Assembly (NCBI GenBank): GCA_031369365.1
Contig: JANMOP010000014.1
Coordinates: forward strand, 4,680 to 68,679
Direction of reading: 5' to 3'
Length of the DNA: 64,000 nt
DNA from: Methylotenera sp.
GTDB lineage: Bacteria > Pseudomonadota > Gammaproteobacteria > Burkholderiales > Methylophilaceae
Shown here: piece after piece, positions 13,341 to 41,182 of the stretch
Layout: each line of letters begins with the position of its first letter
How positions within the stretch are numbered: position 1 is the first letter of the stretch
Program-made: the position numbers and the translations under genes
Notes under the pieces: generated by a model
The model's input: only the letters and a program-made list of their open reading frames with translations
Databases searched by the model: none
What the model was told of the DNA's origin: nothing

Positions 13341-14855
13341 ATGACTACAAAAAATGCTGATATTGGCCTAGTTGGCCTTGCCGTGATGGGGCAAAATCTT
13401 GCCCTTAATATTGCCGATCACGGCTATACCATTGCGGTGTACAACCGCGATCCTAAAAAAATGACTAACTTTATTAAAGAGTGCAAGGCAAACGAACCTT
13501 CGCACGCTAATGTGGTGGGTCATGCTGATTTGGCTTCTTTTGTGCTTAGCATTAAGCGACCGCGCAAAATCGTGCTGCTGGTAAAAGCAGGCAGCGCGAC
13601 CGATGTAACGATTAATGCGTTACTGCCGTTTTTAGAAGAAGGCGACATTATTATTGACGGCGGCAATTCATTATGGACAGACACCATTCGCCGCGAAAAA
13701 GAGTTAGCGGTAAAAGGCATTGATTTCATTGGTTCTGGTGTATCTGGCGGCGAAACTGGCGCGCGTTTTGGCCCAAGTTTAATGCCATCTGGCACGCGCA
13801 AAGCTTGGGCGAGTTTGGAGCCAATTTGGCGTGACATTGCTGCAAAAGTAGATTCAGTCACAGGTGAGCCAATGGAAGGCGGCAAGCCAGGCAAACCAGT
13901 AGTAGGTGGTTTTTCATGTGCGGAATATATTGGCCCAGATGGCTCAGGGCATTATGTGAAGATGGTGCACAACGGTATTGAATATATCGATATGCAGCTT
14001 ATTTGCGAGGCCTATTGGCTCATGAAAAACTTACTTGGTATGCCAGCTGATGAAATCGGTAAAATATTCGCAGAGTGGAACAAAGGCGAATTATCCAGTT
14101 TCTTAATCGAAATTACCGCCGATATTTTGCAACAAAAAGATCCAATGACTAAAGGCTTCTTGGTGGATCAAATTTTAGATACCGCAGGTCAAAAAGGCAC
14201 CGGCCAATGGACAGCCGCCAATGCGCTTGAGCTTGGTGCGCCTGCTAACGCCATCGCCGCAGCGGTGTATGCGCGCGCACTCTCTAGCTTGAAAGAGGAA
14301 CGTGTAGAAGCCAGCAAAATTTTAAAAGGCCCAGCAATTAAGCATGAGACAGACAAAAAAGCCATTATTGATGCGATTAAAAACGCGCTGTATTGCAGCA
14401 AAATATGCGCTTACGCACAAGGTTTTCAGCTGATTGATAAAGCACAAGTGGCGTATAACTGGAAGCTTAACTTTGGCGAGCTGGCACAAATTTGGCGCGG
14501 TGGTTGTATTATTCGCGCCCGCTTTTTGCAAAAAATCACCGAAGCTTACGCACTTAATTCACGTTTGAAAAACTTGATGCTAGACCCATACTTCACTAAA
14601 GCCATGAACGACGGCCAAGCTGGCTGGCGTAAAGTGATTGCTTTAGCGGTGACTAACGGTATTCCCGCACAAGGCTTTAGTGCGGCGATGGCATATTACG
14701 ATGGCTACCGCAGTGCCGATTTACCAGCTAACTTATTGCAAGGCCAACGTGATTATTTTGGCGCGCATACTTACGAGCGTAAAGATCAGCCTCGCGGTCA
14801 GTTCTACCATTTAGATTGGCCAGAACCAAAACGTCCGCAATTGCTGATTGAATAA
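13341..14855 (+). CDS. gnd: 6-phosphogluconate dehydrogenase, decarboxylating (NADP)
   Basis: [40 protein letters not shown] and [10 protein letters not shown] motifs. Confidence 0.97.
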
Positions 14856-14885
14856 AAGCTGACAGCAATTTAGCTAGAAAGCAAC

Positions 14886-14916
14886 GTGGGTTGGCAGTAA
14901 TGCCACCCGCTTTTTT
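14886..14916 (+). terminator. Intrinsic terminator of gnd
   Basis: GTGGGTTGGCA-GTAA-TGCCACCCGC followed by TTTTTT. Confidence 0.7.
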
Positions 14917-14943
14917 CTTTAAAGCCAAATTATATGCTTAAGC

Positions 14944-15138
14944 TTAAACGCAGTCGCTGTACGCTTCTAGCGTACGACTAAAACTTGGTGGTTTAACTTG
15001 TTCCGCAACTTCGGGTAGTTTCGCTTTATCAGCTTTTGAATCACTTACCAGTTTGGTAGAGATGGCCAATTTGGCAGTGGCTTGGGTTTTTACAACGTTA
15101 TTAACATTACTTGTTTCTAAATTTGCTGCTTGCATCAT
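14944..15138 (-). CDS. 64-aa hypothetical protein ending FSRTLEAYSDCV
   Basis: AAGGA RBS at 15143-15147 supports ATG 15138 rather than the ORF-track start. Confidence 0.55.
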   Translation of the reverse strand: MMQAANLETSNVNNVVKTQATAKLAISTKLVSDSKADKAKLPEVAEQVKPPSFSRTLEAYSDCV

Positions 15139-22052: not shown

Positions 22053-23615
22053 TTATGAATGATAAGCACGTTCGCCATGCTCTGTTGTGTCTAAGCCTTC
22101 GCGCTCAGATTCTTCAGATACACGTAAACCAATGACCAAGTCTACAATTTTAAGTGCTATGTATGACACTACTGCAGAAACCACAATGGCAGTACCAACA
22201 GCCCATAATTGCGCTGTCATTTGTGCTGCAAAGTTATACTCTGCAACACCGTTTGCTACGTAGTCAATCACACCAGCGCCACCCAATGCAGGGTTTACAA
22301 ACACGCCAGTAGCTAACGCACCAAAAATACCACCTACGGCGTGAATACCAAATACATCAAGTGCATCATCGTAACCAAACATGTATTTCACTTTGGCCAC
22401 AAACATGTAGCAAATAGGTGAAACCAATAAGCCGATGATAATGGCTGCCATCGGGCCAACGAAACCGCATGCTGGCGTAATGGCAACTAGGCCAGCAACC
22501 GCGCCAGAAGCGGCACCCAACATAGATGGTTTTGATTTGTGGAACCACTCAATAAACATCCAAGAAAGTGTTGCTGCACCTGCTGCAATCATAGTGTTTA
22601 AAAAAGCTAAGGCTGCGTAGCCGTTTGCCTCTAAGTTAGAGCCTGCGTTAAAACCAAACCAGCCCACCCACAACAATGCTGCACCTACCATGGTTAAGGT
22701 TAAGCTGTGCGGCGTCATCGCCTCTTTGCCGTAGCCAATACGTTTGCCTAACACAAAGCATGCTACCAAACCTGCCACGCCTGCATTAATATGCACCACT
22801 GTGCCGCCTGCAAAGTCTAATGCGCCTTTTGCCCACAACCAACCAGCATTTGCTAATACGGTATTTAAAGATTCAGCAGTTGTAATTGCATCTGGGCCAT
22901 CCCAATACCAAACCATGTGAGCGATTGGTAAGTAAGCAAAAGTAAACCATAACACCATAAAAGCTAATACGGCTGAGAATTTCATACGCTCAGCAAATGC
23001 GCCAATAATTAAAGCGGGAGTAATGGCTGCAAAAGTAAGTTGAAAAGCCACAAATATTAGCTCTGGAATATACACACCCTTGCTAAATGTAGCGGCAATG
23101 GATTCGGGTGTAATTCCCATTAAAAAGGCTTTTCCAAAACCACCAAAAAATGGGTTACCACCTGTAAACGCAACGCTGTAACCGTAAACAGCCCACAACA
23201 CGCCCATTAGCGAAAATATAACAAACGTTTGCATTAATACCGAGAGCATATTTTTTTGACGCACTAAGCCGCCATAAAATAAAGCTAAACCTGGAATGAC
23301 CATCAGGGATACCAATGCGGTAGCCACTATCATCCAAGCCGTATCTCCTTTGTTGGGTACTGGCGTTGGCGTAGCAGTAGCTTCAACAGGTGTGGCTTCG
23401 GTTGCCACTGCCTCAGCTGTGGTTACAGTTGATTCAACAGCAGCATCTACAGTACTTTCTACAGCACCTTCAACAGCCACTGATTCAACTGTTGCTGCTG
23501 CAGCTTCTGCGGTTGTTATATCTTCGGCATAAGAAAGCTGCGTTGCGCCAAAACCTAACAAAGCAAGCAATGATAAAACCGATAAGAATTTCTTCATGTC
23601 CCAAATCTTATTCAT
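22053..23615 (-). CDS. amtB: Ammonium transporter AmtB with signal peptide and low-complexity N-terminal extension
   Basis: GLALFYGGLVR, FQLTFAAIT, DFAGGTVVH, GWFGFNAGS and DDALDVFGIH motifs. Start 23615 is chosen from the AGGGG RBS overlapping the glnK stop. Confidence 0.95.
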   Translation of the reverse strand: MNKIWDMKKFLSVLSLLALLGFGATQLSYAEDITTAEAAAATVESVAVEGAVESTVDAAVESTVTTAEAVATEATPVEATATPTPVPNKGDTAWMIVATALVSLMVIPGLALFYGGLVRQKNMLSVLMQTFVIFSLMGVLWAVYGYSVAFTGGNPFFGGFGKAFLMGITPESIAATFSKGVYIPELIFVAFQLTFAAITPALIIGAFAERMKFSAVLAFMVLWFTFAYLPIAHMVWYWDGPDAITTAESLNTVLANAGWLWAKGALDFAGGTVVHINAGVAGLVACFVLGKRIGYGKEAMTPHSLTLTMVGAALLWVGWFGFNAGSNLEANGYAALAFLNTMIAAGAATLSWMFIEWFHKSKPSMLGAASGAVAGLVAITPACGFVGPMAAIIIGLLVSPICYMFVAKVKYMFGYDDALDVFGIHAVGGIFGALATGVFVNPALGGAGVIDYVANGVAEYNFAAQMTAQLWAVGTAIVVSAVVSYIALKIVDLVIGLRVSEESEREGLDTTEHGERAYHS

Positions 23616-23625
23616 GATAAGCCCC

Positions 23626-24003
<378 letters not shown>

Positions 24004-27605: not shown

Positions 27606-30600
27606 ATGCAATCTGCAACAGAAATTAAACTACGCAAATTACTCTCTCAACGCATCCTAATTTTAGATGGCGCGATGGGTACCATGATTCAGCAATATAA
27701 GCTGACTGAGGCGGATTATCGCGGTGAACGATTTAAGGATTTTGCCTCACCCGCAGGCCAGCGCGAGTTATTTGTAAAAGGCAATAACGAGCTGTTAAGT
27801 TTGACTGCGCCGCACATCATTCAAGAAATACACGAGCAATATCTGGCCGCTGGCGCGGATATCATCGAAACTAATACTTTTGGTGCCACATCCGTGGCGC
27901 AAGACGATTACCACATGGCGCATTTGGTGTATGAGATGAATGTGGCTTCTGCCAAATTAGCAAAGGCTGCTTGCGATAAATATAGCACGCCCGATAAACC
28001 ACGCTTTGTAGCTGGCGCGCTTGGGCCAACGCCCAAAACCGCCAGCATTTCACCCGACGTGAATGATCCCGCCGCTCGTAACGTCAATTTTGACCAGTTA
28101 GTAAACGCTTACTTAGCGCAAACGCGCGCATTGGTAGAAGGTGGCGCGGATATTTTAATGGTGGAAACTATCTTTGATACGCTCAACTGCAAAGCCGCTT
28201 TGTTTGCGATTGATACGTTTTTTGAAGAGGTGGGTTACACATTGCCGCTGATGATTTCTGGCACGGTGACCGATGCTTCTGGTCGCATATTATCAGGTCA
28301 AACCGTGACCGCGTTTTGGAACTCAGTTCGCCACGCCAAACCGCTGACGATTGGCTTAAATTGTGCCTTAGGCGCCACTTTAATGCGGCCTTATGCCGAA
28401 GAATTAAGCAAAATCGCCGATACATTCGTGTGCATTTACCCCAATGCTGGCTTACCGAATCCAATGAGCGATACGGGTTTTGATGAAACGCCTGACGTGA
28501 CTTCTAGCTTAGTGAAAGAGTTTGCCAATAGCGGCTTTATCAATATCGCGGGCGGTTGCTGCGGGACTACGCCAGCACACATTAACGCGATTTATGAACA
28601 AGTTAAAAATATCGCCCCAAGAAAGGTGCTCCAGCAGCCAATAGCCATGCGGCTTGCAGGGCTAGAGCCTTTTATCATTAATGAAGAATCACTATTCGTC
28701 AACGTAGGCGAGCGCACCAATGTGACAGGCAGCAAAGCCTTTGCGCGGCTGATTATTAATGAGCAATACGACGAAGCGTTAAGTGTAGCGCGGCAGCAGG
28801 TAGAAAACGGCGCACAAGTCATCGACATTAATATGGATGAAGGCATGCTGGACGCCGTAAAAGCCATGACACATTTCCTGAATTTAATCGCCAGTGAGCC
28901 TGACATTGCCCGTGTGCCAATTATGATTGATTCCAGCAAATGGTCTGTCATTGAGGCTGGGCTTAAATGCGTGCAAGGCAAAGCCATTGTCAATTCTATC
29001 TCGATGAAAGAAGGCGAAGCCGAATTTTTGCGCCAAGCCAAGTTGTGTCGCCGTTACGGCGCAGCGGTGATTGTGATGGCATTTGACGAAAAAGGTCAAG
29101 CGGATACCTTTGCGCGTAAAACGGAAATCTGTGAAAGGGCGTATCGCTTGTTGGCGGGAGATCCAGAGTATCACCGTAGTCAACTATTGCAAGAAAACAG
29201 GCTAGAAAATGCACAAACACTGGCGTTTTTAAGTCCCTCGCCCGCGAGCGGGAGAGGGGTGGGGGAGAGGGGCGAAATATCCATCACCGCCCCTCTCCCT
29301 AGTCCTCTCCCGCCTGCGGGCGAGGGGACACACCCGCCCTCCCACTTGATGGGGTTGGGCATGCTCGAACTTAATACTCCCTCCCCCTTGATGGCGGAGG
29401 GTTGGGGAGAGGGTGAAAACAAGCGAGAGGATGAAATGTATGACAAGGGCATAGGCTTTCCGCCAGAAGACATCATCTTCGACCCTAACATTTTTGCCAT
29501 TGCCACCGGCATTGAAGAACACAACAACTACGCGGTGGATTTTATCGAGGCCACACGCTGGATTAAGCAAAATCTGCCACATGCCAAAATTTCGGGCGGC
29601 GTCTCGAATGTAAGCTTTAGCTTTCGCGGTAACGATCCCGCGCGCGAGGCCATTCACACGGTTTTCCTCTACCACGCCATTAAAGCAGGTATGACCATGG
29701 GTATTGTGAATGCGGGCATGATGGGCATTTATGATGATCTCGCACCAGAGTTAAAAGAGCGGGTGGAAGATGTAGTGCTAAATCGCAGGGATGACGCCAC
29801 CGAGCGCATGATTGAAATTGCTGGCACGCTAGTGGCAGGTGGTAAAAAAGTGGCTGCAACGCTAGAGTGGCGCGGCTCTGTGGATGATCCTGTGAGCGTG
29901 CAAAAACGCTTAGAACACGCCATGGTGCATGGCATTACCGACTTTATAGTGGAAGACATCGAAGAAGCGCGTGCGGCGGTTGAAGCATCTGGCGGCAGAC
30001 CAATTCACGTCATCGAAGGCCCACTGATGGACGGCATGAACGTGGTAGGTGATTTGTTTGGCCAAGGCAAAATGTTTTTGCCGCAAGTGGTGAAATCTGC
30101 TCGCGTGATGAAAACTGCCGTGGCACATTTAATCCCGTTTATTGAGGCCGAAAAAGTCTTAGAGCAAGAGCGCACAGGCGTGGTAGCCAAACCAAAAGGC
30201 AAAATCGTCATCGCCACTGTTAAGGGTGATGTGCATGACATCGGAAAAAATATTGTGAGTGTAGTATTGCAATGCAATAACTTTGAAGTAGTCAACATGG
30301 GCGTGATGGTACCAGCGGCGGAGATTTTAGCCATGGCAAACGCCGAAAACGCCGATATTATTGGCTTGGGCGGCCTGATTACGCCAAGCTTAGAAGAAAT
30401 GACGCACATTGCCAAAGAAATGCAGCGCGACCCCTATTTTGCTAATGCAAAAACGCCGCTGCTTATTGGCGGTGCCACATGCTCGCGCGCGCACACAGCG
30501 GTAAAAATCGCCCCGCATTACGATGGCCCCATTGTCTATGTGCCAGATGCCTCGCGCAGTGTAAGCGTGATGCAAAATCTACTCACACCCGAAACGCGCG

Positions 30601-31658
30601 GCGCGTATTTGGCCGAGATTCAAGCGGATTACCAAAAAGCGCGCGAGCAACATGCCAACAAAAAAGGCGTGCCAATACTCACTATTGCCGATGCGCGCGC
30701 AAACAAATCTAAATTAAGTTTTGCAGGTGAATTTGCACCCGTAAAGCCCAAGTTTATTGGTCGCCGCGTGTTTAAAAATATCGATTTAAGCTTAATCGCG
30801 CAATACATTGATTGGGCGCCATTCTTCCAAACGTGGGATTTAGCAGGCTTTTATCCCGCTATTTTGACTGATGAAGTAGTGGGCGAAGCCGCGACAAAAG
30901 TATTCGCCGAAGCGCAAAGTATGCTAAAAAAAATCATTGATGGCCGCTGGCTAACGGCTAACGGCGTCATCGCGCTAATGCCCGCCAATAGTGTGAATGA
31001 CGACGATATTGAAATTTATACTAACGAAAATAGAGATGAAGTTGCCTTCACCTATTACGGTATGCGCCAACAAAGCGTAAAGCCAGTGATAGAAGGCGTG
31101 GCGCGGCCAAACCAATGTTTAAGTGATTTTATTGCGCCTAAAAATAATGCAGATGATTACATCGGCTTATTTGCCGTAACCGCAGGTTTAAGTACTGAAA
31201 AAATCGAAAAACGCTTTATAGACGCGCAAGATGACTACAGTGGCATTATGTTCAAAAGCCTTGCAGATAGGCTTGCTGAAGCGTTTGCAGAATACATGCA
31301 CGAACGCATCCGCACCGATTTATGGGGTTATGCGAGCGACGAAAAGTTGCCTATAGACGCGTTAATCAAAGAAGAATATGCAGGCATTCGCCCTGCGCCT
31401 GGCTATCCTGCTTGCCCAGACCATACGGTAAAAGCCGATATGTTCAAGCTGCTGCAATGCGATGAAATTGATATGCAGCTCACCGATAGCTTCGCCATGA
31501 TGCCTGCGGCGGCAGTATCAGGTTTTTACTTTGCACATAAAGACGCTAAATACTTTAGTGTGGATAAAATTGGCACAGACCAACTAGAAGACATGGCAAA
31601 ACGCAGAAACTTGCCTAAAAGCTATTTAGAGCGCTGGTTAGCGCCGAATTTGGGATAA
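27606..31658 (+). CDS. metH: Cobalamin-dependent methionine synthase carrying a ~96-aa in-frame repeat-derived insertion
   Basis: Hcy domain (DGAMGT, GLNC, GGCCG), pterin domain (GERTNV, DSSK, IIFDPN), B12 domain (GDVHDIGKN) and AdoMet domain ([12 protein letters not shown]). One continuous 1350-aa ORF. Confidence 0.97.
29235..29415 (+). repeat. Intragenic palindromic repeat cluster in metH: 94-bp hairpin doublet plus two related units
   Basis: Arms at 29235-29273 and 29289-29328 are near-perfect inverted repeats. There is a partial unit near 29333-29360 and a full unit at 29377-29415. Confidence 0.9.
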
Positions 31659-31661
31659 ATT

Positions 31662-32303
31662 ATGCTGAAAAATGGCTATCAAATTGTTTATGTTTTAACA
31701 AACCCTGCAATGCCAGGGCTGGTAAAAATTGGCAAAACAACAAATTTAGAAATTGAAGTAAGAATGCGTCAGCTATATGGAACGGGTGTTCCAGTCCCAT
31801 TTGATTGCGCTTTTGCTTGCCAAGTAAAAAACGCGCATGAAGTTGAAAGAGCTCTACATTATGCTTTTGGAAATATAAGAATCAACCCGAATAGAGAGTT
31901 TTTTAAAATTGAAGCAGAAAGAGTTATTTCAGTTTTAAAGCTGCTCAAAGTTGACGACATAACTGCTGAATTTGAAGATAAAATTGAGGCAGGTACAGAA
32001 GAGGTAGATAAGCAATCTGCACAAATATTTAAAGAAACAATAAGACCTAGAATGAATTTTCATGAGCTTGCCATCCCAAACGAATCTATATTAGTTTCTA
32101 GAGATGGAAGGTTGCGAGTTAAAGTTATTGAAGCAAAAAAAGTTGATTTAAACGGCGAAAAAATGTCTTTAACTATGGCCACGCGCCGTTTACTGGGTTT
32201 GCCAGACAATCAGCCAATTCAGCCTTCGCCCTATTGGTCGTTTAATGGCAGATCAGTTATAGATATTTACGAAGACTATCACTCCGTTGCTGAAGAAGAA
32301 TAA
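31662..32303 (+). CDS. T5orf172/MUG113-type GIY-YIG nuclease with a probable RAMA-like C-terminal domain
   Basis: IVYVLTNPAMPGLVKIGKT, RMRQL..TGVP.PF and VERALH..F...RINPNREFF match T5orf172. The C-terminus VDLNGEKMSL..A.....PSPYWSFNGRS is RAMA-like by eye. The gene is AT-rich. Confidence 0.8.
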   Translation: MLKNGYQIVYVLTNPAMPGLVKIGKTTNLEIEVRMRQLYGTGVPVPFDCAFACQVKNAHEVERALHYAFGNIRINPNREFFKIEAERVISVLKLLKVDDITAEFEDKIEAGTEEVDKQSAQIFKETIRPRMNFHELAIPNESILVSRDGRLRVKVIEAKKVDLNGEKMSLTMATRRLLGLPDNQPIQPSPYWSFNGRSVIDIYEDYHSVAEEE

Positions 32304-32305
32304 CT

Positions 32306-33829
32306 ATGCACATTCACATTTTAGGTATTTGCGGTACATTCATGGGCGGTATTGCGGTGCTAGCTAAGCAGGCAGGGCATCGCGTCACGGGGTGCGATGC
32401 GAATGTTTACCCGCCAATGAGTACGCAATTAGAATCTCAAGGCATTGAGTTGATTGAGGGTTTTTCACCCGAGCAAACCAAGTTAAACCCAGATATTTAT
32501 GTGATTGGTAATGTGGTTTCGCGCGGTAATCCGTTGATGGAAGAAATTTTGAACCTTGGTTTGCCCTACATTTCTGGCCCGCAATGGTTGGCAGAGAATG
32601 TGTTGCAAGGTAAGTGGGTGTTGGCTGTAGCGGGCACGCACGGCAAAACTACAACGTCTTCAATGCTCGCATGGATACTGGAATATGCGGGTTTGGCACC
32701 TGGCTTTTTGATTGGTGGGGTGCCTGAGAATTTTGGCGTTTCGGCAAGGCTGCCGCAAGTGCCGCCTGCGCAAACGCTCAAGCTAGCAAGCCCCTCGCCC
32801 GCAAGCGGGAGAGGGGTTGGGGTGAGGAGCGGCTCGACTATGGGCATTGCCCCTCACCCTAGCCCTCTCCCGCCTGCGGGCGAGGGGATAAAAAACAAAG
32901 GTGATTTTTCACCCTTTTTTGTCATCGAAGCAGACGAATACGACACCGCTTTTTTTGATAAGCGCTCAAAATTTGTGCATTACCGCCCGCGTACGGCTAT
33001 TTTGAACAATTTAGAGTTTGATCACGCGGATATTTTTGATGACCTAAATGCGATTGAAAAGCAGTTTCATCATTTGATTCGCACTGTGCCGCAAAACGGT
33101 TTGGTGGTGATTAATGGCAAAGAAGATAGCCTAAAACGTGTTTTAGATAAAGGCTGCTGGAGCACGGTGGAGCATTTTGGCACGGATGCGGATTGGCAGG
33201 CAAAAAATGCACTAGGCGATGGTAGTTTCGACGTATATTTTAAGAATGAGCGCCAAGCGCATTTAAGCTGGCAGATGTTGGGCGAACACAACAGAATGAA
33301 TGCGCTGGCAGCAATTGCCGCGGCGCGCCATGTGGGCGTGGCGCCGTGTATTGCCATTGAAGCGCTTAGCGAATTTAAAAACGTAAAACGCCGTATGGAA
33401 ACCAAAGGCGTGGTGAATAATATTACAGTTTACGATGATTTCGCGCATCATCCAACCGCTATCGAGACTACATTAGCAGGCCTGCGAAGCAAGCTGGACG
33501 CGGTTTCTGGCGATGCCAAAAAAGGTGCTAGAATAATAGCGGTGCTAGAGCCGCGCAGCAACACCATGAAGCTGGGTGTGATGAAAGACGCGCTGCCTGC
33601 CAGTTTAAAACATGCAGATTTGGTGTTTTGTTATGGCGCAAATTTAGGTTGGGATGCAACAGAGGCATTAAAACCGATTGCAAATAAAGCCAAAACATTC
33701 GATGATTTAACTATGCTAGTAAACGCAATAAGCGCAGCAGCTAAATCGGGTGACCATATTCTAGTGATGAGTAATGGTGGTTTTGGTGGCGTGCATCAAA
33801 AAATTATTGATTCATTAGCGGAAAAATAA
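32306..33829 (+). CDS. mpl: Murein peptide ligase Mpl carrying an in-frame hairpin insertion
   Basis: MHIHILGICGTFMGG, AGTHGKTTT, FVIEADEYDTAFFDKRSKF, DDFAHHPTAI and EPRSNTM motifs. Confidence 0.97.
   Translation: MHIHILGICGTFMGGIAVLAKQAGHRVTGCDANVYPPMSTQLESQGIELIEGFSPEQTKLNPDIYVIGNVVSRGNPLMEEILNLGLPYISGPQWLAENVLQGKWVLAVAGTHGKTTTSSMLAWILEYAGLAPGFLIGGVPENFGVSARLPQVPPAQTLKLASPSPASGRGVGVRSGSTMGIAPHPSPLPPAGEGIKNKGDFSPFFVIEADEYDTAFFDKRSKFVHYRPRTAILNNLEFDHADIFDDLNAIEKQFHHLIRTVPQNGLVVINGKEDSLKRVLDKGCWSTVEHFGTDADWQAKNALGDGSFDVYFKNERQAHLSWQMLGEHNRMNALAAIAAARHVGVAPCIAIEALSEFKNVKRRMETKGVVNNITVYDDFAHHPTAIETTLAGLRSKLDAVSGDAKKGARIIAVLEPRSNTMKLGVMKDALPASLKHADLVFCYGANLGWDATEALKPIANKAKTFDDLTMLVNAISAAAKSGDHILVMSNGGFGGVHQKIIDSLAEK
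32792..32888 (+). repeat. Intragenic 97-bp hairpin doublet in mpl
   Basis: Left arm is 33/36 and right arm 38/40 identical to the metH copy; loop is 18 nt versus 15 nt. Confidence 0.92.
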
Positions 33830-39640: not shown

Positions 39641-40927
39641 TTAATCTATGGGTAAATTTAGGCAGCTTTCTAGTGCAAATAAATCGGCTATTTTTTCGCG
39701 CTGACGCACTACAAAAACTTGGTCGCCATCTACTATGACTTCGGCCGCACGGCCGCGTGTATTATAGTTGCTGGCCATACTCATACCATATGCCCCAGCC
39801 GACATAATGGCGAGTAAATCACCCTCGTTCAAGTTTAAATTTCTATCATGGCCTAAAAAATCGCCACTTTCGCACACGGGGCCTACAATTTCATACACTT
39901 CAGCCTTGCCTGTGCGTGGTGCAACTGCCTGAATATCGTGAAAAGCATCGTACAAAGCAGGTCGCATCAGGTCATTCATGGCGGCATCTACAATGGCGAA
40001 ATTTTTAGGCTTATCCATCTTCAAACCTTGCTCCGAACCTTGGCCCATTTTTAAATATTCAACTTTGGTCAATAATACGCCTGCATTGCCCACCAATGCT
40101 CGGCCTGGCTCAAACAGTAGTTTTACATTACGATTAGTCAGTTTGGCTAAAATCGCTTTGACGTAAGTTTTAAATTCGGGTGGCGTTTCGTCCGCATAAG
40201 TAATGCCAATGCCGCCACCCACATCGATGTGGCTAATATGAATACCTTTGGCTTCTAGTTTATCTACCAAGCCTAAAATTAAATCCAGCGCCTCAATAAA
40301 CGGCGCTAATTCGGTAATTTGCGAGCCGATATGACAATCGACGCCATGCACGGTGATATTCGGCATAGCGGCGGCTTGCTCATAAACGCTAATCGCCTCG
40401 TCAAACGCCACACCAAACTTATTATTTTTTAAACCAGTGGAAATATATGGGTGGGTTTTGGCATCTACATTCGGATTCACGCGCAAAGACACTGGCGCAA
40501 TTTTGCCCATTTCACCAGCCACTGCATTCAAGCGTATTAGCTCGCTTGCCGATTCCACATTAAAGCAAAAAATACCCGCGTTTAAAGCCGCGCGCATTTC
40601 ATCGGCAGTTTTACCCACGCCAGAAAACACAATTTTTTGCGGGTCGCCACCTGCGGCCAAAACACGCGCCAGCTCGCCACCAGACACAATATCAAAGCCC
40701 GCACCCATCTTGGCAAACAAATTCAAAATGGCAATGTTGGGGTTAGCTTTTACGGCAAAACACACCAAATGGTTTGTACCAATTAGCCCCGCACTAAAAT
40801 TTGTAAAGGCACGTGTTAAAGCGGCTTTACTGTAAACATAACACGGTGTGCTAAATTCTTGTGCTATGCGCTCAAGCGCAATATTTTCGGCATGTAATTT
40901 GCCGTTTTTTAAATTAAATATATTCAC
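39641..40927 (-). CDS. lysA: Diaminopimelate decarboxylase
   Basis: FAVKAN (PLP Lys), DIVSGGEL, HIGSQ, EPGR and GPVCESGD motifs. Confidence 0.97.
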   Translation of the reverse strand: MNIFNLKNGKLHAENIALERIAQEFSTPCYVYSKAALTRAFTNFSAGLIGTNHLVCFAVKANPNIAILNLFAKMGAGFDIVSGGELARVLAAGGDPQKIVFSGVGKTADEMRAALNAGIFCFNVESASELIRLNAVAGEMGKIAPVSLRVNPNVDAKTHPYISTGLKNNKFGVAFDEAISVYEQAAAMPNITVHGVDCHIGSQITELAPFIEALDLILGLVDKLEAKGIHISHIDVGGGIGITYADETPPEFKTYVKAILAKLTNRNVKLLFEPGRALVGNAGVLLTKVEYLKMGQGSEQGLKMDKPKNFAIVDAAMNDLMRPALYDAFHDIQAVAPRTGKAEVYEIVGPVCESGDFLGHDRNLNLNEGDLLAIMSAGAYGMSMASNYNTRGRAAEVIVDGDQVFVVRQREKIADLFALESCLNLPID

Positions 40928-40945
40928 AATGTATCTTTTAATTTC

Positions 40946-41182
40946 TTATAAATATGCACTGCAATGCGCATGGATATTGGCTTGCAGGCCTGTGCTGGAA
41001 TGTCTTAGTCCAGTGACATGTTGTTTTTCGTTTATTGGCACGCTATTATTTTCAGCGCCCTGCGGGTAGCGCTGCTCAGGGATATACAACGGCCCTTTAG
41101 TGCCGCAACCAGCTAAAATGGACAAAGTAAGGTATAACATTGCAATAAATAAATTTTGGCTTGTATTTTTTTGGCGCATCAC
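40946..41182 (-). CDS. lptM: LptM/LppL-family small lipoprotein
   Basis: LAGCGTKGPLYIP lipobox motif; upstream of lysA as in many proteobacteria. Confidence 0.75.
   Translation of the reverse strand: MMRQKNTSQNLFIAMLYLTLSILAGCGTKGPLYIPEQRYPQGAENNSVPINEKQHVTGLRHSSTGLQANIHAHCSAYL

Follow-up and report, generated by a model that had tools for sequence, protein, structure and literature searches.

The window (the whole 64,000-nt stretch of Methylotenera sp. DNA that was analysed) carries, between the genes for methionine synthase (metH) and murein-peptide ligase (mpl), an open reading frame (ORF) for a protein of 213 aa. Both flanking genes were identified above the NCBIfam equivalog cut-offs. 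The features of the locus are as follows:

27606..31658, + strand: metH (NCBIfam methionine synthase equivalog, 2040 bits), context and presumed source of transcription
31656..31664, + strand: upstream junction, read from the sequence as the metH stop codon TAA, the spacer ATT and ATG
31662..32303, + strand: 213-aa ORF, PDC-S57 member (ORF list; PADLOC profile match; homologues of ∼213 aa)
31683..31943, + strand: T5orf172-type GIY-YIG nuclease domain, residues 8–94 (Pfam PF10544, PF13455)
31944..32036, + strand: acidic and basic helical linker, residues 95–125 (structure model; invariant columns)
32037..32300, + strand: predicted RAMA-fold DNA-binding domain, residues 126–213, with an acidic tail at its end (AF2 model, Foldseek)
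32301..32308, + strand: downstream junction, read from the sequence as the stop codon TAA, the spacer CT and the mpl ATG
32306..33829, + strand: mpl (NCBIfam TIGR01081, 730 bits), context and downstream gene of the same operon

The ORF is fitted tightly into the operon. The metH stop codon (TAA, 31656–31658) is followed by 3 nt (ATT) and the ATG of the ORF at 31662, and the stop codon of the ORF (TAA, 32301–32303) by 2 nt (CT) and the mpl ATG at 32306. No promoter-like site was detected on the + strand in the last ∼1.3 kb of metH, no terminators were found around the ORF, and an Rfam search over 26–36 kb of the window gave zero family matches. Because it has no promoter of its own, the ORF presumably is co-transcribed with the operon and translated by coupling. 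A terminal-repeat search around the gene returned neither direct nor inverted repeats bracketing the ORF, and no integrase is present with it. A preliminary description of this DNA had stated that promoter space, an integrase and terminal repeats are lacking, and the 3-nt and 2-nt spacers, together with the empty searches, bear this out. An integron gene cassette was considered and rejected: there is no attC, with just 2 nt and no inverted repeat between the stop codon and the mpl ATG.

The ORF also stands out by its composition, with 36.6% G+C and a GC3 of 0.26, compared to 48.8% and 0.50 for metH and 48.0% and 0.47 for mpl. Equally AT-rich sequence made up 0.9% of the 642-nt windows across the 64 kb, and the spot counts reported earlier (21/60 G+C at 31681–31740 and 17/60 at 31861–31920) proved exact. 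The early view of a foreign-looking, inserted gene is thus upheld by the low G+C and GC3 and by the metH-mpl junction, which is empty in related genomes and in contigs from the same metagenomes (see below). Further AT-rich patches (642-nt windows of at most ∼37% G+C) lie at ∼14720–15040, 23560–23940 and 40780–41140.

Domain architecture of the 213-residue protein

The N-terminus had been described as T5orf172-type, and Pfam agreed: T5orf172 (PF10544) matched residues 8–94 with an E-value of 1.6e-18 (67.5 bits versus a cut-off of 20). MUG113 (PF13455), which like PF10544 belongs to the GIY-YIG superfamily, also matched the N-terminus (E 3.4e-14), and the full-length structure model matched the GIY-YIG nuclease Slx1 with a Foldseek probability of 0.96–0.98. 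Residues Y10, K22-I23-G24, T26, R34, H66 and N75-P76-N77-R78-E79-F80-F81 were invariant in 35 homologues; judging from their position in the motif, R34 and E79 are probably the catalytic Arg/Glu pair of GIY-YIG enzymes. The T5orf172 domain is a proven nuclease in Odn of phage ICP1, where the E180A substitution kills activity (PMC8263062), and in SNIPE, of which the E414A variant is inactive (PMC13190303). In the full-length model, the two domains are joined by a long helix of low pLDDT (residues 98–127), and the linker residues D116, Q118, S119 and K124 were invariant in the same 35 homologues. An NCBIfam scan of the 213-aa protein gave zero families, and when the full-length and C-terminal alignments were run as profiles against PDB sequences, the hits were noise alone.

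The structure of the C-terminal 88 residues was modelled separately with AF2 from a 60-sequence alignment, and this model had a pLDDT of 91.8. Its best Foldseek match in the PDB was CcrM (6pbd_A/B; TMq 0.71–0.74, rmsd 2.1–2.7 Å, probability 1.0), the next distinct match was MPND (TMq 0.53–0.62, the highest for 7ydw_B), and a SAND domain was a weaker match. The CcrM match probably falls on the C-terminal domain of that enzyme, given its length of ∼90 columns and the parallel match to MPND. The only solved RAMA domains are those at the C-terminus of CcrM and at the N-terminus of MPND, which resemble one another far more in structure than in sequence (PMC9963953). The present domain was 13–14% identical in sequence to CcrM and 8% identical to 7ydw_B, the best chain of MPND. 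Pfam RAMA (PF18755) did not match the C-terminal domain alone or 60 diverse copies of it at E-values up to 10, nor did any other Pfam family. A Foldseek comparison with viral predicted structures gave the C-terminal model one match, an uncharacterised phage protein, and nothing informative. The models support the assignment of a RAMA fold to this domain; because PF18755 misses both the domain and its 60 relatives, it would represent a divergent, uncatalogued branch of that fold. The tail had been called RAMA-like in the preliminary description, which thus holds at the level of the fold, with CcrM and MPND as the top PDB matches, and fails for the curated Pfam sequence model. The residue pattern on which that call was based was likewise partly correct: residues G165, S169, A173, W192, N195 and G196 exist, but not at the spacing given, as A and W are 18 residues apart.

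The C-terminal domain alone had 292 relatives in 1.8 billion representative proteins. In these it followed T5orf172 domains (sometimes as a tandem of two or three copies) or an EEP nuclease, formed the C-terminus of a 1629-aa SF1 helicase that also has an MTES_1575 restriction-type nuclease, or stood alone in proteins of 80–125 aa (architectures seen in P0126, P0131, P0132, P0187, P0192 and P0269). The domain thus displays the promiscuous fusion to nuclease domains that is a trait of RAMA. Iyer et al. (2016) described RAMA as a portable nuclease accessory with T5orf172 among its listed partners (PMC4738411). The T5orf172-RAMA fusions predicted in that study by Iyer, Zhang and Aravind have the same pairing of nuclease and RAMA fold as the present protein; they differ in that PF18755 misses the present C-terminal domain and in that no adenine methyltransferase is linked to the present gene (PMC4738411). 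The RAMA fold is shared with CcrM (6PBD) and MPND (7YDW/7YDT), and an acidic stretch follows the domain as it does in MPND, whereas the partner is a nuclease here, a methyltransferase in CcrM and a deubiquitinase in MPND. Both solved RAMA domains contact the DNA backbone without sequence specificity, DNA binding by MPND is unchanged by 6mA, and the acidic stretch that follows the MPND domain inhibits DNA binding (PMC9963953).

Distribution and movement of the gene

A check against PADLOC had been proposed in the preliminary description, and it identified the protein as the single-gene phage-defence candidate PDC-S57 by an end-to-end match. Model PDLC05041 matched residues 4–208 at profile positions 3–208 of 212 (E 1.4e-74, 248 bits), and PDLC05043 also matched (E 1.2e-36); the PDC-S57 models comprise PDLC05040–05043. 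By its sequence, the protein is a member of this catalogued, uncharacterised candidate family. It agrees with PDC-S57 in being encoded by a single gene with no conserved partner, and the gene here is located in a housekeeping operon, not in a defence island. A literature search found no paper that mentions PDC-S57 and no anti-phage experiment on the family.

We collected 1975 homologues, nearly all of ∼213 aa and 65–97% identical; the exact 213-aa protein had no record in the contig index. Of the 185,579 species genomes searched, 368 (∼0.2%) contained a relative; most of these genomes are from Beta- and Gammaproteobacteria, and the outliers are from Planctomycetes, Bacteroidota, Actinomycetes and cyanobacteria. 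Close relatives were missing from known phages and plasmids, where full-length relatives were only 30–43% identical. No conserved partner gene was found (the largest cluster of neighbours accounted for 5 of 83 loci), and the immediate neighbours were mostly housekeeping genes and small toxin-antitoxin (TA) pairs rather than defence islands, with type III or IIG restriction-modification, Dpd or mad genes as a minority. Typical settings were trpB-[gene]-trpA, leuD-[gene]-leuA, downstream of rlmB, and upstream of a GyrB/ParE-type topoisomerase gene; the upstream neighbour was usually on the same strand across a small gap. In L007, L011, L012 and further loci the gene adjoins small TA pairs (DUF4258/DUF2283, HepT/MNT, DUF4258/MqsA-like), which are likewise wedged into the trp, leu and rlmB operons. 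It seems that small cassettes of a selfish or defensive kind gather at these operon junctions.

At the metH-mpl site itself, the arrangement metH-[gene]-mpl-tonB was also found in a metagenome contig (L008; protein 86% identical), in a Methylotenera metagenome-assembled genome (MAG; L019, 76%) and in a Methylophilaceae MAG (L021, 74%). Three more distant relatives (L094, L095, L161) had an empty junction, with the metH stop codon followed by the mpl ATG across 9–64 nt. Comparison of the filled and empty sites indicates that the inserted material was the ORF plus 2–3 bases. Gene-free alleles were also seen in two freshwater-sediment metagenomes that hold the sequence of the window. Five contig joints there skipped 641–647 nt, running from 31658–31662 to 32301–32306, at a depth at least that of the gene itself; these empty alleles may come from related rather than identical populations, because the shorter side of the joints spans only 29–45 nt and mpl varies very little at its start. 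Comparison of the gene with its orthologues at the same site gave dN/dS values of 0.06–0.09 with saturated dS, and mpl behaved likewise. From this low dN/dS with saturated synonymous sites, we conclude that the gene is old at metH-mpl and strongly constrained. Conservation differed between the two halves of the protein across taxa: the nuclease half was 85–88% identical and the RAMA-fold half 57–67%. Three metagenomic alleles (P0015, P0016, P0018) were mosaics, with an N-terminal half 92–97% like the allele of the window and a C-terminal half 84–88% like the L019/L021 allele, which suggests that the parts of the gene encoding the two domains have recombined within the Methylophilaceae population.

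Transfer between distant hosts left a compact trace. A Propionivibrio locus (beta; L038:5359-6010) and a Methylomonas locus (gamma; L040:5986-6637) shared 88% nt identity over 652 nt, and this block consisted of the ORF with ∼15 nt upstream and 13 nt downstream, and nothing beyond. The transferred unit therefore appears to be essentially the bare ORF. In 73 of 79 loci the gene had a higher A+T content than its host, and its G+C still tracked that of the host (r = 0.73), a combination that points to repeated transfer followed by long residence. Across ∼80 loci there was no common insertion-site motif, except for short leaders within subgroups. These leaders of ∼22 nt (e.g., TTAGCTTTCTTCAATATCCGCC) lie ∼25 nt upstream of the ATG and move with the gene into differing contexts (in L038, L039, L040 and L042, and in L024, L025 and L027); a signal for ribosome binding or regulation may lie within them. 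One Variovorax genome contained two copies of the gene in a common unit of ∼2 kb (87% identity, L060 versus L064). Taken together, the comparisons firmly support the description of an accessory, horizontally spread gene whose product is a predicted GIY-YIG nuclease carrying a RAMA-fold DNA-binding domain, and which entered a housekeeping operon as a bare ORF and presumably relies on that operon for its expression.

Possible functions of the nuclease

The role that we tentatively place first is that of a stand-alone defence nuclease: a soluble, single-chain GIY-YIG endonuclease connected by its linker to a RAMA-fold DNA-binding domain, and encoded by a horizontally mobile gene that was inserted and has been kept by selection. 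According to this model, the bare ORF would have been inserted precisely after the stop codon of metH and before the start codon of mpl in an ancestor of one Methylophilaceae lineage, and strong purifying selection would have kept the gene since then. The RAMA-fold domain would bring the enzyme onto phage or plasmid DNA that enters the cell, and the GIY-YIG domain would nick or cut this DNA. The host chromosome might be spared by recognition of a base modification that is absent from the host, by an autoinhibitory effect of the acidic linker and tail, or by AT-rich codons that keep expression very low. We rank defence first because of the PADLOC designation, the architecture of nuclease plus reader that also occurs in restriction enzymes and in SNIPE, the accessory nature and AT-richness of the gene, and the faster-evolving DNA-binding half. 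The weak points of the model are surroundings that are mostly not defence islands, the absence of the close family from known phages and plasmids, the miss by the Pfam RAMA model, the lack of a visible way to avoid self-cleavage, and a domain layout like that of homing enzymes. In particular, the absence of sequence or 6mA preference in the solved RAMA domains argues against defence, as it leaves no basis for distinguishing self from non-self.

SNIPE (PD-lambda-1) offers a comparison for this role, in that a T5orf172-type GIY-YIG nuclease and a DNA-binding domain occur in one polypeptide and the nuclease part is the most conserved in both proteins while the DNA-binding part is more variable (PMC13190303). 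In contrast to the present protein, in which the order of the domains is reversed and DUF4041 is absent, SNIPE has ∼490 aa, is membrane-anchored, contains DUF4041 and carries its nuclease at the C-terminus (PMC13190303). Membership in SNIPE was rejected: no DUF4041 appeared in the Pfam scan, and the PD-Lambda-1 models matched the nuclease domain only (E ∼1e-9, profile positions 356–462 of 496). Inspection of the 213-aa sequence revealed no hydrophobic segment. SNIPE becomes toxic once it lacks its membrane anchor and thereby combines a soluble nuclease with a DNA binder of no specificity (PMC13190303). A 213-aa protein with no obvious anchor must therefore spare its own chromosome by a solution other than that of SNIPE. 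If PDC-S57 truly defends, it would rank among the smallest systems that target DNA, with 213 aa and no partner gene, and its protein would provide a tractable route to what the RAMA fold recognises, for which the two structures have given backbone contacts only.

A more specific version of the defence model, and one that we regard as unlikely, is modification-dependent (type IV-like) restriction, with the RAMA-fold domain reading a modified base that is absent from the host, such as N6-methyladenine. RAMA was proposed to be an m6A reader because of its fusions to nucleases, T5orf172 included, and to N6A methyltransferases (PMC4738411), which makes this preference a prediction even for its founding members, and a conserved methyltransferase neighbour is missing here, as expected of a type IV enzyme. 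Set against this, 6mA is without effect on binding by MPND, and the RAMA domain of CcrM contacts the backbone only (PMC9963953). Because the solved domains show no sequence or 6mA preference, we treat modification dependence only as a possibility.

GIY-YIG homing enzymes such as I-TevI have an N-terminal GIY-YIG domain, a linker and a C-terminal DNA-binding domain, and the present protein has this same layout. The gene may accordingly be viewed as one for a selfish, free-standing homing-type endonuclease, which would cut gene-free genomes near the operon junction so that repair copies the bare ORF in, any benefit to the host being incidental; we find this rather doubtful, and it is the most substantial competitor of the defence model. 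The insertion of a promoterless ORF with 2–3 nt between stop and start codons, free of repeats and integrase, fits such a history, as do the unit of the ORF and ∼15 nt common to different bacterial classes, the coexistence of empty and filled alleles in the same metagenomes, the upstream gene that is mostly on the same strand across a small gap, and the occurrence of mosaic alleles. T5orf172 genes are moreover putative homing endonuclease genes in ICP1 phages (PMC10448857, PMC8263062). The likeness to the I-TevI-type enzymes and to the ICP1 T5orf172 homing genes and Odn extends to a free-standing promoterless ORF between conserved genes (PMC8263062, PMC10448857). The DNA-binding part, by comparison, is a predicted RAMA fold here versus a zinc finger plus helix-turn-helix in I-TevI and RepA_N in Odn, and unlike the phage genes the present family is chromosomal in bacteria, occupies many unrelated sites and is under strong purifying selection. 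As in homing genes, the promoterless ORF lies exactly between conserved genes and has filled and empty alleles; however, there is no single insertion site. Proteins that are 65–75% identical are encoded at metH-mpl, at trpB-trpA, at leuD-leuA, after rlmB and at many other sites that are unrelated and have no flanking motif in common, which one target specificity cannot explain. The dN/dS of 0.06–0.09 over saturated dS would be unusual for a homing gene once fixed, the solved RAMA domains lack sequence specificity, and the close family is chromosomal rather than phage-borne.

A bolder reading of the same mobility, which we consider quite unlikely, is that the family represents a class of naked-ORF mobile genes of bacterial chromosomes, in which the predicted nuclease, guided by its fast-evolving RAMA-fold domain, inserts its own gene at stop-start junctions of actively transcribed operons and borrows their promoters. 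If true, a unit of ∼650 bp would be spreading between bacterial classes with no recombinase, repeats or attC, as a chromosomal counterpart of the free-standing homing genes of phages that has no fixed target site. Whichever function the protein has, the clean entry of a bare ORF into housekeeping operons and ORF-only transfer between classes raise the question of how such genes move.

A domesticated host factor would also fit the strong purifying selection on a gene that is inherited stably and vertically within a housekeeping operon; it could be either a structure-specific repair nuclease or a DNA-binding regulator whose cleavage activity is lost, as in CapR of PLE. The resemblance of the N-terminal model to Slx1 would suit the former, and T5orf172 proteins can become repressors (PMC8096241). 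We nevertheless judge such a role to be very improbable. It is made unlikely by the sporadic distribution (∼0.2% of species), and the presence/absence polymorphism, the persistent AT bias, the invariance of R34 and E79 (the putative catalytic pair) and the variation of insertion sites between lineages also speak against it.

Palindromic hairpins in the flanking genes

Both neighbours of the ORF contain a copy of a near-perfect palindrome of ∼97 nt, at 29234–29327 in metH and at 32791–32887 in mpl, with a DNA folding energy of -46.6 kcal/mol (z -8.6). The preliminary description had raised the idea that the nuclease mobilises these hairpins. This did not hold up: L008, L019 and L021 have the gene at this site with no hairpin in metH or mpl, and 172 of 173 fetched loci lacked the motif. 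In L008, metH (1271 aa) and Mpl (457 aa) are without the hairpin. In the window, by comparison, the inserts are in frame (29210–29330 and 32767–32888), adding ∼50–80 residues and leaving the reading frames unbroken. Some mpl alleles lack the element, and metagenome contigs skip 164–168 nt at the mpl copy; because contigs skip it and the depth there is ∼250, the hairpin is a high-copy, MITE-like element. The insert in metH extends to ∼29420 with more repeat-like sequence.
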